Assembly: GCA_964638585.1 (NCBI GenBank)
Contig: CAZXAN010000004.1
Span: forward strand, 708-64,707
Direction of reading: 5' to 3'
Length of the DNA stretch: 64,000 nucleotides
From: an uncultured Candidatus Saccharibacteria bacterium
Lineage (GTDB): Bacteria > Patescibacteriota > Minisyncoccia > Phycocordibacterales > Phycocordibacteraceae
Of the stretch, positions 201-60,474 are shown in pieces. Position 1 is the first letter of the stretch. Every line of letters starts with the position of its first letter. The notes beneath the pieces were generated by a model. It saw nothing but the letters and a program-made list of their open reading frames with translations, searched no databases and was not told where the DNA came from. A program made the translations under genes and the position numbers.

Positions 201-204
201 AAAG

Positions 205-275
205 TCGGGGTGCGGAGAATCGAACTCCGTCATCTTGCTCCCAAAGCAAGCGTACTACCGGTATACGACACCCCG
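205..275 (-). tRNA. tRNA-Pro (anticodon TGG)
   Basis: Revcomp folds as a cloverleaf: acceptor CGGGGTG/CACCCCG with C1:G72 as in bacterial tRNA-Pro; anticodon stem CTTGC/GCAAG; loop TTTGGGA gives anticodon TGG; T-arm CGGAG-TTCGATT-CTCCG. Confidence 0.8.
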
Positions 276-9005: not shown

Positions 9006-9524
9006 TTACTTTCCATCAATATACATCTTGCGTCCCTTCTCAAATGCAGATTCTGCAGAATCCTTATCCTCAAACCCATTTACAATTACTTCTTTGTTCT
9101 GCAATTTTTTATAGGTTGAATAGAAGTGCTCTATCTCTTTTAGCGTGTGTTTGTTTACGTCAGGCAGGTTCTTGGTATCTTTCCATCTAGGATCGTCAAC
9201 TGGCACCGCTATGACCTTATCGTCGCTATCACCGCTATCAATCATTTTCATAAGCGCGACCGGGCGAACACGGACTAGGATCCCCGGTACAAGCGGATAC
9301 GTCGTTAAGATAATTACGTCTAGTGCATCGCCATCCTCCCACAAAGTTTGTGGCACAAAGCCATAATCAAAAGGGAAGTCTTGTCCGGTGTGCGCTACTC
9401 GGTCAAGAGCTATGAGACCTGTTTTTTTATCAATCTCATATTTATTGTGAGACCCTTTATTGATCTCAACAATCACGTTCATCTCTTCTTTTGTCCCAGG
9501 ATCAATATCGTGAAGCAGGTTCAT
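9006..9524 (-). CDS. ppa: inorganic pyrophosphatase (family I)
   Basis: EINKGSHNKYEIDKKTG...DGDALDVIIL family I PPase motifs. Confidence 0.9.
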   Translation of the reverse strand: MNLLHDIDPGTKEEMNVIVEINKGSHNKYEIDKKTGLIALDRVAHTGQDFPFDYGFVPQTLWEDGDALDVIILTTYPLVPGILVRVRPVALMKMIDSGDSDDKVIAVPVDDPRWKDTKNLPDVNKHTLKEIEHFYSTYKKLQNKEVIVNGFEDKDSAESAFEKGRKMYIDGK

Positions 9525-52200: not shown

Positions 52201-52968
52201 ATGAGGATCATCTCTCTCAATACATGGGGCGGTAGAGCTGGGAAAGAAAAACTCCTCGAGTTTTTTAAAACACAGGCAGGCACGACAGACATTTTTTGTC
52301 TACAGGAGATATGGTCTGCGGCATACCAACATTTGGATGGACACAATGCTGGAGGTGTAGTGATAAAGCATGAACAGGTTCTGACGCATGGTTTGCAGGA
52401 AATATCAGCAATACTACAAAATCACACATCATTTTTCCGTCCACACTTTATGGATAATTACGGACTTCTAATGTTTGTGAGCAAAAATCTCACGATTGTA
52501 GAGGAAGGGGAAGTTTTTGTGTATAAAGAAAAAGGACATATACCAAAAGGAGACGTAGGTACACACGCGCGCAACATTCAATACGTGACGGTTGAGACCG
52601 CGGGTTGTCCGATAACCGTTATAAATTTCCATGGCCTCTGGAATGGCAAGGGAAAGGGCGACAGTCCAGACCGTCTGGAACAGTCAGATAGGATTCTAGA
52701 GTTTACGAACAAGCTTAAAAATCCGTTCGTCTTGTGCGGCGATTTCAATCTGCTTCCAAATACAGAGAGTCTACGGAAGTTTGAAGATGCGGGATTGCGG
52801 AATTTAATTAAAGAATTCGGAGTGACGTCAACACGAACGAGCTTCTACATAAAGCCTGAAAAATTTGCGGACTATGTATTTATCAGCGACGGAACAGATA
52901 TCAAAGATTTTAAAGTTTTGCCTGACGAAGTCTCAGATCACGCACCACTCTTGGCTGAAGTGGGTTAA
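52201..52968 (+). CDS. endonuclease/exonuclease/phosphatase (EEP) family protein
   Basis: MRIISLNTWGG...CLQE...GDFN...SDHAPL EEP catalytic motifs. Confidence 0.7.
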   Translation: MRIISLNTWGGRAGKEKLLEFFKTQAGTTDIFCLQEIWSAAYQHLDGHNAGGVVIKHEQVLTHGLQEISAILQNHTSFFRPHFMDNYGLLMFVSKNLTIVEEGEVFVYKEKGHIPKGDVGTHARNIQYVTVETAGCPITVINFHGLWNGKGKGDSPDRLEQSDRILEFTNKLKNPFVLCGDFNLLPNTESLRKFEDAGLRNLIKEFGVTSTRTSFYIKPEKFADYVFISDGTDIKDFKVLPDEVSDHAPLLAEVG

Positions 52969-52982
52969 CTTAGTGCGCCTGG

Positions 52983-53010
52983 TTGGGAACGAACCAGCAT
53001 GTGGTATTAT
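52983..53010 (+). promoter_or_regulatory. candidate promoter for tRNA-Lys (-35 TTGGGA / -10 TGnTATTAT)
   Basis: Extended -10 TGGTATTAT with 16-17 nt spacer, about 55 nt upstream of the tRNA. Confidence 0.3.
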
Positions 53011-53068
53011 AGTAAGGGAGTCGCTGATATGAGATGAAGATGATAATGTGCGGTTAGAAAATATACAT

Positions 53069-53142
53069 GCGCCCGTAGCTCAGTCTGGTAGAGCAACGGC
53101 CTTTTAAGCCGCTGGTCGATGGTTCAAATCCATCCGGGCGCA
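53069..53142 (+). tRNA. tRNA-Lys (anticodon TTT)
   Basis: GCGCCCG/CGGGCGC acceptor, D-arm TAGCTCAGTCTGGTAGAGC, anticodon loop CTTTTAA, T-arm GATGG-TTCAAAT-CCATC; no encoded CCA. Confidence 0.85.
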
Positions 53143-53143
53143 C

Positions 53144-53977
53144 ATGAAAGATTTCAAAGACCACTGTATATCCTTGCGAAAGACAGGGCACAGCATTATT
53201 GAAATTATGAGAGCAACAGGTAGAGCAAAAAGTTCTATATATACGCACATAAAAGACATTCCATTAAGCAAGGAACGCTTAAAAGAAGTAAAGAAAGCTT
53301 CTGGAGAGCGGATTAGGAAATTCGCAATAGCACGAAAAGGGAAGAGTAAACGAGATTTCAGTTCATTTCAAAAATGGACACCAGAGACAGTCTCTTTAGT
53401 TGCGCACCTCATTTTTGACGGTGGCATTTATCCTAAAAGCGGATGCACATACAACAATCGCAGTAAAACTCTGATAAATCATGTAGAAGAATGCATGCGT
53501 CTTATTTATGTGTTTGAGCCGACGCAGTACACCAATCCAGGGACTGGTGTACTGCGAATTAGCTATCACAATGTAGCTCTTGCTATATATATGAAGAAGA
53601 AGGCTAGAGAGTTATTGCATAAAATACTGCACACACCTTTAAATCTCAAAAGGGAATTTGTCAGGGCTTTTTTTGACGACGAGGGATGTATAGACTACCG
53701 CCCGGAAAAAAATAGACGGAGTATTCGTGGTTATCAGAAGGATGCGAAGATACTTCATATAACTCAGAGACTCTTGCAAGATTTTAGTATTGAATCGCGG
53801 ATTGTTCTTCCGAATGAGGTCGTCATCGTAGGGAAAGAGAATCTGATGAAGTTTAGAAAAGAAATAGATTTTTCTCCTGGCGTGTATGTGAATGGAAAAC
53901 GTTCAAACAGCAGATGGAAGAAACACATAGAAAAAAGGGAATTGCTCAGACGAGCGATAGAATCCTTTAAAAATTAG
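53144..53977 (+). mobile_element. double-motif LAGLIDADG homing endonuclease gene, free-standing, 2 nt after tRNA-Lys
   Basis: Two LAGLIDADG-type motifs (LVAHLIFDGGIY and FVRAFFDDEGCI) about 100 aa apart, N-terminal HTH-like segment; ATG at 53144 immediately follows the tRNA 3' end. Confidence 0.7.
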
Positions 53978-54948
53978 TAGCTAAACGCATCTACGGTCTT
54001 GCCGTTGATGTCTAAGAGTTTAACAACCTCATATTTTGTGCGCCACATAGGAGTAGTGCGATTGAGGTAAACGCGCCAAGTATTGCCCATAAAGTCAGCA
54101 TCGTCTCTGTGCGTTTCAACACAGCCGTTATAGTTCAGGTGTTTTACGATGAAGCTCTGACACACCCCTGAGAGATTTGGCGGCGGAGTAAGCGTTACTT
54201 GGCAACGCGACAGTGTCTTAACGTAGTCTATGCAAGCAGTGTCGCGTATGTAGTTGGGCCCATAATATTTGATCAAGTCATCTGACGGTAAAGGGCAATT
54301 CTGTGGCAAAGAAGGATAGAATCGCTGAAACGTACTGAAATATCCGATGCATTTATTCTCACGAAATGAGGCTCCGATAGGAGAGCGTCCAGATATAATT
54401 GTCGCACGCGTTCCCGGTGGTAGCACTATATCTTCTGACGCATTTATGTTGCCAGATATAGGAACCTCTGTGCCCTTAGGAATAGCGGCGATAATCCCAG
54501 TAGCATCGCTCATAAATCTCCATCCAGTTAGATCAAGAGGTATACCGCCGTTTGGGACAGACAATTCTATGTATTCATTTTTAGGGTCTATTGATCCGGC
54601 ACCAGAGACATAATGGCTCATTGATACAATCCCTCTATACGGTGATACGGGACCAAAGATACTGCCACCAAGAGAAGACGAGTCAGGAGTTGGAGGAGTA
54701 TTTTGAGAGCCAGAGTTGTTCTGGCTACTCCCGCCACCGCTGTTGTTGTATGCCCTTGGCACAGAAGAATCTAGAGAGCCGGTCGTGTATGGAGATCGTG
54801 GGAATTGTAGATAAGTACCACCACCGAGAGCGTCTGGTGCTGCCAAGGTTGGGCCAGTAAAGGCAATTGGGTGTAGAGGGCCACCTGTTGCTACCCAAAC
54901 AAGAAAGATGAAAATGAATATTCCTATAAAAAACCACGCATCATGCAT
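53974..54948 (-). CDS. secreted/membrane-anchored lamin-tail-domain (LTD) protein
   Basis: N-terminal TM helix; Gly/Ser-rich linker; LTD motif NEYIELSVPNGGIPLDLTGWRF. Confidence 0.55.
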   Translation of the reverse strand: MHDAWFFIGIFIFIFLVWVATGGPLHPIAFTGPTLAAPDALGGGTYLQFPRSPYTTGSLDSSVPRAYNNSGGGSSQNNSGSQNTPPTPDSSSLGGSIFGPVSPYRGIVSMSHYVSGAGSIDPKNEYIELSVPNGGIPLDLTGWRFMSDATGIIAAIPKGTEVPISGNINASEDIVLPPGTRATIISGRSPIGASFRENKCIGYFSTFQRFYPSLPQNCPLPSDDLIKYYGPNYIRDTACIDYVKTLSRCQVTLTPPPNLSGVCQSFIVKHLNYNGCVETHRDDADFMGNTWRVYLNRTTPMWRTKYEVVKLLDINGKTVDAFSY

Positions 54949-55861: not shown

Positions 55862-55867
55862 AATCAG

Positions 55868-55939
55868 TGCTCTCGGCTGGAGTCGAACCAGTATTGGATC
55901 CTTCGGAGGGATCTATCCTATCCGTTGAATGACGAGAGC
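55868..55939 (-). tRNA. tRNA-Arg (anticodon CCG)
   Basis: Revcomp: GCTCTCG acceptor, anticodon stem GATCC/GGATC, loop CTCCGAA, T-arm ACTGG-TTCGACT-CCAGC. Confidence 0.75.
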
Positions 55940-55973
55940 GAACATCTCAATACTAACTCTGAATCAAATTTTG

Positions 55974-56045
55974 TGCCCCCGGGAGGAATCGAACCTCCAT
56001 CACGAACTCCGCAAGCTCGCGTCCTATCCATTGAACGACGGGGGC
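55974..56045 (-). tRNA. tRNA-Arg (anticodon GCG by loop position; ACG-type family)
   Basis: Revcomp: GCCCCCG acceptor, D-arm TCGTTCAATGGATAGGACG, anticodon loop TTGCGGA, T-arm GGAGG-TTCGATT-CCTCC. Confidence 0.65.
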
Positions 56046-60271: not shown

Positions 60272-60390
60272 GCTGTTCCTCGGCCCGGGACCCCACCGTG
60301 ACATACGAAGAATCAGTTCAAACGCCGCCTCGTGCGGCGTTACTTTTTATGGATAGAAAAGGTGCCACCTTGGCAACAAATCTAGTCGAG

Positions 60391-60474
60391 CGGAAGGGGT
60401 GGGACTCGAACCCACAAGGGCTTTTGACCCGCTAGTTTTCAAGACTAGTTCCTTACCATTCGGAGCACCCTTCC
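60391..60474 (-). tRNA. tRNA-Ser (anticodon TGA), long variable arm
   Basis: Revcomp: GGAAGGG acceptor, anticodon stem CTAGT/ACTAG, loop CTTGAAA, 17 nt variable arm, T-arm GTGGG-TTCGAGT-CCCAC. Confidence 0.8.

Follow-up and report, generated by a model that had tools for sequence, protein, structure and literature searches.

A free-standing LAGLIDADG endonuclease gene inserted directly behind tRNA-Lys(UUU) in Patescibacteria

Why should a protein-coding gene begin 2 nt behind a tRNA gene, with hardly any sequence of its own in between? The question is raised by an open reading frame (ORF) of 277 codons at positions 53144-53977 of the forward strand in a stretch of 64,000 nt (hereafter the window) from contig CAZXAN010000004.1 of an uncultured Candidatus Saccharibacteria bacterium. 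An earlier note on this DNA had described the ORF as a LAGLIDADG homing endonuclease gene and had left it between a mobile gene that landed beside tRNA-Lys and a domesticated one. The comparisons presented here place it on the mobile side: the window ORF is an 831-bp insertion bounded by the C after the tRNA discriminator and by a convergent neighbour's stop codon, the site, at which the insertion is seamless, is empty in most close relatives, and other lineages carry the ORF together with a displaced 3' fragment of tRNA-Lys. We consider it probable that we are dealing with a free-standing homing endonuclease gene, active now or until recently, that is specific for tRNA-Lys and expressed from the tRNA.

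The filled and the empty site

The tRNA-Lys(ttt) gene was called at 53069-53143 by ARAGORN and at 53069-53142 by Rfam (73.3 bits), and the acceptor stem GCGCCCG/CGGGCGC sets the discriminator A at 53142, a C at 53143 and the ATG at 53144, so that the junction is as first described. The elements on which the comparison of alleles depends are the following.

53069-53142, plus strand: tRNA-Lys(UUU), intact, with no encoded CCA and the discriminator A at 53142 (ARAGORN, Rfam, 7 of 7 acceptor pairs)
53143, plus strand: single C at the C74 position between discriminator and ATG; it belongs to the tRNA gene context, is also present in the empty allele L115 and forms the left boundary of the insert
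53144-53974, plus strand: insert of 831 bp that comprises the LAGLIDADG endonuclease gene's 277 sense codons but no stop codon (filled against empty alleles)
53975-53977, plus strand: stop codon TAG of the ORF, derived from the host and already present in empty-site alleles (filled against empty alleles)
53974-54948, minus strand: convergent gene with a sub-threshold match to the Pfam lamin-tail domain (LTD; E=1.5e-4, 22.6 bits, cut-off 34.3)

Because our earlier sample of loci had been picked by presence of the gene, occupancy was determined by a metagenome scan anchored on the tRNA 5' half (GCGCCCG-type acceptor through anticodon), which is blind to downstream content. The ORF was found in 5 of 82 evaluable tRNA-Lys loci with at least 300 nt downstream, and L116, with 270 nt downstream, is also filled. 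Fourteen loci belong to organisms closely related to that of the window, by a PolA value of at least 70%, a HolA value of at least 60% or a comparable measure, and of these 3 are filled and 11 empty; the comparison of related tRNA-Lys loci that the earlier note had proposed thereby revealed both states. Four of the empty loci share the gene order of the window, with the LTD gene converging directly on tRNA-Lys. A universal housekeeping gene, an idea prompted by the very high conservation, was rejected on the tRNA-anchored sample, in which most relatives are without the ORF.

The uninterrupted allele, also sought in the earlier note, is present in exact form in L115 and L172, which read tRNA-Lys, then C, then TAGTAGTTAAACG... 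In L115 the junction is ...GGGCGCA C TAGTAGTTAAACGCATCTACGG... (beginning TAGTAG), and in the window it is ...GGGCGCA C (ATG...831 nt...AAT) TAGTAGCTAAACGCATCTACGG..., with the filled loci L098 and L131 arranged likewise. Comparison of empty L115 with the filled window thus defines the insert as exactly 831 bp, or 277 sense codons without stop. The stop codons of the endonuclease ORF and the LTD gene overlap, and the neighbour regains its stop codon through the T that ends the insert: in the window this stop (reverse complement of 53974-53976) is TAA, composed of the final insert base and two host bases, and in L115 it is TAG, drawing on C74 of tRNA-Lys. Precise presence and absence with an uninterrupted allele is what a mobile element leaves behind.

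Other loci retain scars. A tRNA 3'-end fragment comprising T loop, acceptor strand, A and C lies 0-22 nt past the ORF stop in L019, L023, L027, L046, L058 and L061; a strict tRNA-3'-end pattern gave 3 matches in ~24,000 positions, all at most 11 nt from the stop, where by our own estimate ~0.05 would be expected by chance. In all six loci the fragment differs from the functional tRNA upstream. The L023 fragment is of the CCGCCCA-acceptor type (...TTCGAGTCCTGGTGGGCGGAC) and continues into a hairpin of the kind expected at a tRNA terminator, whereas the functional tRNA of L023 and its nearest endonuclease relatives are of the GCGCCCG type, and its PolA is closest to that of L022 (CCGCCTA type). 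This fits an incoming cassette of tRNA plus ORF that recombined into an ORF-less resident tRNA-Lys and displaced its 3' end. No 5' tRNA remnants were found upstream of the functional tRNA in the loci with 3' remnants. In the window, no repeat of the tRNA 3' end occurs within 400 nt downstream (z=-1.2), and absence of a remnant in the window clade is expected where both flanks are homologous.

The events could be explained as follows. The enzyme would cut tRNA-Lys alleles that lack the ORF, and when the double-strand break is repaired from a copy that has it, the ORF would be pasted in; with both flanks homologous the insertion would be seamless, and with only the tRNA side homologous a tRNA 3' remnant would be left.

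The gene order around the insertion is polA, holA, Exo_endo_phos gene, tRNA-Lys, ORF, LTD gene (minus strand), ruvA (minus strand), rpsT (plus strand) and two tRNA-Arg (minus strand). The Exo_endo_phos gene (52201-52968, plus strand) is present in some close relatives (e.g. L003, L004, L010, L012, L016, L036, L096) and missing from others, and the interval adjoining tRNA-Lys is a small variable spot. In several close relatives (L096, L103, L128, L123, L186 and L109; PolA 72-76%) tRNA-Lys alone is flipped, lying on the strand of the LTD gene and ruvA and facing holA, with the flanking gene order kept and no ORF. Many tRNA-Lys genes of the group (L004-L007, L016, L018, L020, L024, L030, L032 and others) have A in place of T at the first T-loop position (GGATCG... 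vs GGTTCG...).

A family tied to one tRNA gene

The idea of a mobile gene landing next to a tRNA gene held as to mobility, but the landing is not a one-off, as the link to tRNA-Lys spans the whole family. A word-indexed search returned at least 400 related proteins, of which the best 120 have 60-77% identity, are nearly all 275-278 aa long and come from metagenome-assembled genomes (MAGs) of Parcubacteria, Paceibacterota and Kaiserbacteria; an exhaustive profile search, with clustering at 50% identity, gave 488 clusters, and for 78 the match had E<1e-30. While a single-sequence back-translated scan of genome contigs found nothing, an alignment-based, profile-guided scan of one genome per species yielded 68 loci, two of which are cut at the 5' end and not evaluable. 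ARAGORN placed an intact tRNA-Lys(UUU) immediately 5' on the same strand in 61 of these loci. Counted over the evaluable bacterial loci of other species, tRNA-Lys(UUU) is directly upstream in 61 of 63, and the remaining two have an intron-split tRNA-Lys(UUU) there; the juxtaposition is not by chance.

In 45 loci, counting the window, nothing but one C separates the discriminator from the start codon, and in 53 the spacer does not exceed 4 nt. Longer spacers, of 6-68 nt, are confined to the most divergent members, and L165, at 39% identity, likewise reads A-C-ATG. Three members seemingly free of a tRNA (L062, L063 and L065; 35-38% identity) actually adjoin tRNA-Lys(UUU) genes whose anticodon loop is interrupted by a group I intron. 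Every evaluable bacterial family member is therefore physically tied to a tRNA-Lys(UUU) gene, no bacterial member away from tRNA-Lys was ever found, and the family is confined to Patescibacteria, in Paceibacteria-type genomes and a small number of others, and there to tRNA-Lys(UUU) genes. Three archaeal loci in Methanosarcinales MAGs (L066, L067, L068) encode proteins of 350 aa with 26-28% identity, and no tRNA was found near them. These archaeal proteins keep IYAH-IFDG and AFFDDEGC motifs and have extra HTH-like (helix-turn-helix-like) segments at both ends.

Full-text literature searches brought up no account of a LAGLIDADG gene linked to tRNA-Lys. Neither the enzyme class nor free-standing homing endonuclease genes nor collaborative homing is new in itself; what is new is a chromosomal LAGLIDADG family dedicated to one tRNA gene, with a conserved tRNA-C-AUG junction, a borrowed stop codon and a series from intron-associated to intron-free members. 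The nearest case in the same host group is that of bacteria of the candidate phyla radiation (CPR), in which LAGLIDADG endonucleases occur in rRNA-gene insertions (PMC11270868). Both share the superfamily and target-specific homing into highly conserved RNA genes, but the CPR enzymes sit inside the insertion sequences of rRNA genes, whereas the present family is free-standing at the 3' end of a tRNA gene; the word tRNA occurs 0 times in that survey.

To which enzymes is the protein related? Both the two LAGLIDADG-type motifs and the N-terminal HTH-like segment proposed from the letters are borne out by profile and fold comparison. A model was built with AlphaFold (AF2) from 30 family members, with a mean pLDDT (per-residue model confidence) of 88.6 and secondary structure assigned by DSSP, and it divides the protein into three modules.

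53144-53335, plus strand: N-terminal HTH module, residues 1-64, with predicted helices 2-13, 18-25, 29-36 and 43-64 and a weak HTH_29 match
53381-53632, plus strand: LAGLIDADG domain 1, residues 80-163, motif VAHLIFDGGIY (model and conservation)
53639-53863, plus strand: LAGLIDADG domain 2, residues 166-240, motif RAFFDDEGCI (Pfam LAGLIDADG_3 and model)

Pfam LAGLIDADG_3 matches residues 168-241 (E=3.8e-9, 37.1 bits, cut-off 22.5), that is, domain 2 only. Domain 1 with the first motif (HLIFDGGIY) escapes Pfam, while the model reveals a full alpha-beta-beta-alpha-beta-beta-alpha domain: helix 80-91, strands 93-96 and 100-105, helix 108-119, strands 127-130 and 137-141, and helix 144-163. Domain 2 repeats this plan with helix 166-180, strands 181-186 and 191-197, helix 201-213, strands 219-221 and 225-229, and helix 231-240. 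The HTH module, matched by HTH_29 below cut-off (residues 8-39, E=0.004), is modelled as three short helices followed by a long one, directly after which comes a basic linker, RKGKS (residues 64-68), whose R64, G66, K67 and S68 are invariant despite low pLDDT. The whole linker of low model confidence (53324-53380, residues 61-79) also holds the invariant F72, F75 and W78, and is possibly a DNA-groove-binding segment.

The catalytic acids of LAGLIDADG enzymes stand at the C-terminal end of each LAGLIDADG helix. The putative catalytic residues D92 (codon 53417-53419; conserved in at least 90% of 30 sequences, between the invariant F91 and G93) and E180 (codon 53681-53683; invariant, within FFDDEGC at 176-182, itself invariant in the family alignment) each close such a helix, being the last residue ahead of a Gly that opens strand 1. 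Foldseek against PDB returned, with probability 1.0, the intein endonuclease of Tli VMA (E=3e-7), many structures of I-DmoI (E ~1e-6, TM score on target 0.66-0.69), PI-PfuI, PI-SceI, I-Tsp061I and the LAGLIDADG domain of WhiA (3hyj/3hyi/8dy7); the bI3 maturase is also among the fold matches. By sequence, neither the protein nor the family profile had a meaningful match among PDB chains, and NCBIfam gave only sub-threshold intein-type matches; placement is thus by fold comparison. The protein is a single-chain, two-domain LAGLIDADG enzyme with an N-terminal HTH and both catalytic acids kept. I-DmoI from the 23S rRNA intron of Desulfurococcus mobilis, Tli VMA, PI-PfuI and PI-SceI have the same single chain of two alpha-beta-beta-alpha-beta-beta-alpha domains with a motif-1 Asp and a motif-2 Glu, and D21 and E117 of I-DmoI lie within GDGGLY and AEGD, which resemble FDGGIY and DEGC of the window protein. 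Unlike these enzymes, the window protein is free-standing and tied to a tRNA, is without detectable sequence similarity to any solved chain, and has the additional HTH and basic linker. It is not encoded within an intron or intein either, as had been argued from the intact tRNA: the ORF follows that tRNA, there is no intron match or Hint domain, and Rfam finds nothing else there.

The intron-split genes of the deep branches lie at the following positions.

L062, 3702-3970; L065, ~1413-1700; L063, 2770-3108: group I introns of 197-266 nt without ORF in the anticodon loop of tRNA-Lys(UUU)

They were missed by ARAGORN, which calls the spliced exons tRNA-Lys(ttt); Rfam Intron_gpI scores are 54.5 (L062), 92.5 (L063) and 54.9 bits (L065). 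In L062 and L065, exon 1, an intron of ~200 nt and exon 2 are followed by the ORF start ~10 nt later. In L063 the ORF sits upstream of the intron-containing tRNA-Lys and is preceded by a duplicated tRNA 5' half ending in the anticodon loop, and past the tRNA gene, ~150 nt downstream, comes a duplicated tRNA 3' end. The whole of this tRNA-Lys/ORF region is bracketed by a 44-nt repeat with many short palindromes (GGTCTATAGTCTATAG...CATAGACC; L063 1754-1797 and 3312-3355), which also precedes the next tRNA gene. No report of a group I intron in tRNA-Lys was found in the one review searched.

Free-standing endonuclease genes beside ORF-less group I introns are known from collaborative homing in phages, as in T4 mobE/I-TevIII and cyanophage F-CphI/psbA (PMC2790892, PMC6083498, PMC3984707). 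The enzymes of those systems are of HNH or EndoVII type, phage-borne and directed at protein genes, whereas the present family is LAGLIDADG, chromosomal and linked to tRNA-Lys; a group I intron lacking an ORF is present in the adjacent gene in L062, L063 and L065 and not in the window, whose branch is intron-free. As the L063 5' remnant ends in the anticodon loop, where these three loci have their introns, the deep branches hint, by analogy with collaborative homing, at a target in the anticodon arm. For the seamless insertion in the window, a target that covers the tRNA 3' end together with the flank downstream of it would fit just as well.

Expression from the tRNA

How is a gene expressed that has no upstream region? 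In a scan of 52900-54100, no promoter- or terminator-like site was found between tRNA-Lys and ORF, and no terminator-like site anywhere in that interval. The 20 nt before the ATG are tRNA sequence and hold no GGAG/GAGG/AGGA motif and no -10-like motif. As there is no room for a promoter between the two, co-transcription with the tRNA is the only evident route, in agreement with the earlier suggestion. The sole plus-strand promoter-like site of the scan lies 5' of tRNA-Lys.

52983-53010, plus strand: candidate promoter of the tRNA-Lys/ORF transcript, a match to consensus (TTGGGA, 16 nt, TG-TATTAT, an extended -10)

The region contains 3 promoter-like sites where 2.7 are expected, which makes this site weak on its own.

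All six tRNA genes of the window (204-275, 1662-1733, 53069-53143, 55867-55939, 55973-56045 and 60390-60474) lack an encoded CCA and are followed by C, and in ORF-less metagenome tRNA-Lys loci the discriminator is followed by C in 78 of 88. tRNA genes without CCA would imply a CCA-adding enzyme and endonucleolytic 3' trimming, which for such tRNAs is carried out by RNase Z pathways. Moreover, among 51 ORFs across the window, with gene starts called crudely, the ATG is preceded by a TANNNT -10 box beginning at precisely -12 in 11 cases and at -13 in 4, where ~0.7 are expected at each position, and a Shine-Dalgarno-like motif (GGAG/GAGG/AGGA) is upstream of only 6. Judged by these start regions, the host looks largely leaderless; examples of the pattern are the genes at 9006-9524 (minus strand), 13918-14691 (plus), 52201-52968 (plus) and 53974-54948 (minus). 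In L062, with its Shine-Dalgarno-like context, the spacer before the ATG is TAAGGAATTG, which suggests that the tRNA-ORF junction may adapt to the initiation mode of the host.

The locus thus combines a 1-nt spacer, no promoter or Shine-Dalgarno motif, CCA-less tRNAs and a leaderless-type host, which is what would be expected of a leaderless mRNA made by tRNA 3' processing. Lacking promoter and ribosome-binding site of its own, the ORF would be transcribed from the tRNA-Lys promoter as a tRNA-mRNA precursor, and RNase Z-type 3' maturation of the CCA-less tRNA would release an mRNA beginning (C)AUG. A cut at the discriminator or one base after it would give this 5' end, suiting the apparent initiation of the host, and the released mRNA would be translated without a leader, a mode that the host appears to use for many genes. 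The arrangement resembles the tRNA punctuation model, established for mitochondrial transcripts, in that the tRNA abuts the start codon and its excision would give a 5'-terminal AUG with no leader, but here it would be a selfish gene on a bacterial chromosome that uses the device. Initiation on leaderless mRNA by 70S ribosomes has been reviewed (PMC9031893). We put forward tentatively, and with some doubt, that tRNA-C-AUG is a working bacterial tRNA punctuation, in which 3' maturation makes the leaderless mRNA of a selfish endonuclease, and that this endonuclease recognises the tRNA-Lys(UUU) gene across lineages of ~35% protein identity.

Weighing the explanations

Several observations count against a mobile, active endonuclease gene. 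Identity to the window protein is 47-73% for the endonuclease, 51-78% for PolA, 36-87% for RuvA and 24-75% for HolA; across 780 locus pairs endonuclease identity tracks PolA identity (Pearson 0.71), and the near-identical L049/L050 is the one pair whose endonuclease is much more similar than its PolA, so that recent long-range transfer is not seen. Discordance between gene and host amounts to the one local case of L023. Empty loci are interspersed among filled ones in neighbour-joining distance trees of HolA and PolA, but these trees are star-like and poorly resolved, and gains and losses are not countable from them. All contigs of the window population with identical neighbour proteins carry the ORF, and exact-protein look-ups of two neighbours found no empty allele in that population. 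The empty relatives are known as contigs, and a copy elsewhere in those genomes is conceivable. There is one possible pseudogene among ~70 copies, in L052, which makes the family more stable than the textbook cycle of invasion and decay. The tRNA processing and leaderless translation proposed above are predictions from sequence, and a cleavage target inside tRNA-Lys would need an immunity mechanism for the resident intron-less tRNA.

The frame-disrupted copy in L052 (4001-4824) has a single frameshift near codon 114 and is otherwise intact, which either an assembly error or very recent pseudogene formation could explain. With an arms race or co-conversion, tRNA-Lys should change faster, and tRNA-Lys was not clearly faster-evolving than tRNA-Arg of the same genomes (mean identity 0.793 vs 0.807, p ~0.08).

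Much of this would suit a domesticated LAGLIDADG/HTH protein, once a homing endonuclease but now retained because it serves the host, and inherited vertically with some losses, acting either as a WhiA-like DNA-binding regulator or as a factor on the tRNA-Lys locus or transcript. Purifying selection is strong (dN/dS, the ratio of non-synonymous to synonymous rates, 0.06-0.10, with synonymous sites near saturation), the protein is conserved as much as PolA and at long range more than HolA or RuvA, its length keeps to 275-278 aa in at least 120 clusters, invariant residues are numerous in the predicted beta-sheets, and the WhiA domain is among the fold matches. Because of this selection, the near-absence of pseudogenes and the host-like divergence, domestication stays a rival, though in our judgement an unlikely one. 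That the ORF is missing, and its site seamlessly empty, in 11 of 14 close relatives speaks against it, and so do the tRNA 3' remnants and the discordance of tRNA and ORF with PolA in L023, which indicate repeated insertion into ORF-less tRNA-Lys. WhiA (DUF199) is a bacterial transcription factor and universally conserved core gene of Gram-positives, in which a degenerate LAGLIDADG scaffold is joined to an HTH. The window protein shares the two-domain scaffold and the HTH, but WhiA has lost the catalytic acids and has its HTH at the C-terminus, whereas here the HTH is N-terminal, the distribution is sporadic, and D92 and E180 stand at the catalytic-acid positions, so that the catalytic apparatus looks intact. 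Moreover, we know of no precedent for a host function tied to the 3' end of one tRNA gene.

LAGLIDADG proteins are also known as maturases, and the window protein might aid folding and splicing of a group I intron, with its endonuclease role secondary or lost. The bI3 maturase among the fold matches and a bacterial LAGLIDADG maturase cited in PMC3984707 would allow this. It is very improbable for the window, where tRNA-Lys, like that of 61 other loci, is intron-free, Rfam finds no group I intron anywhere in the 64 kb, and the catalytic residues are conserved.

The ORF as cargo or remnant of an integrase-type element using the tRNA-Lys 3' end as attachment (att) site is the least credible reading, to be given next to no weight: tRNA 3' ends are classic att sites, a point made in the earlier note that applies to integrase-mediated integration, and six loci have a duplicated tRNA 3' fragment behind the ORF, but no integrase or att-type repeat is present in the window, no recombinase is nearby, the flanking conserved housekeeping genes keep the order of empty relatives, there are no relatives in IMG/VR or GenBank phages, no PADLOC match and one non-significant PHROG match, and an integrase island was rejected because the insert equals the ORF.

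If the reading as a free-standing homing endonuclease gene expressed from the tRNA is true, Patescibacteria would harbour a chromosomal LAGLIDADG homing endonuclease family devoted to one tRNA gene, in which the parasitised tRNA supplies a selfish gene with its transcription as well as its translation initiation, in a host largely without Shine-Dalgarno initiation, and a bacterial counterpart of mitochondrial tRNA punctuation would become directly testable. Hundreds of natural variants with strongly conserved DNA-contact surfaces, together with natural empty and filled sites, would aid the mapping of a new meganuclease specificity. In the deep branches, a group I intron in tRNA-Lys(UUU) beside a free-standing endonuclease gene would offer a natural series for the formation and dissolution of endonuclease-intron partnerships.

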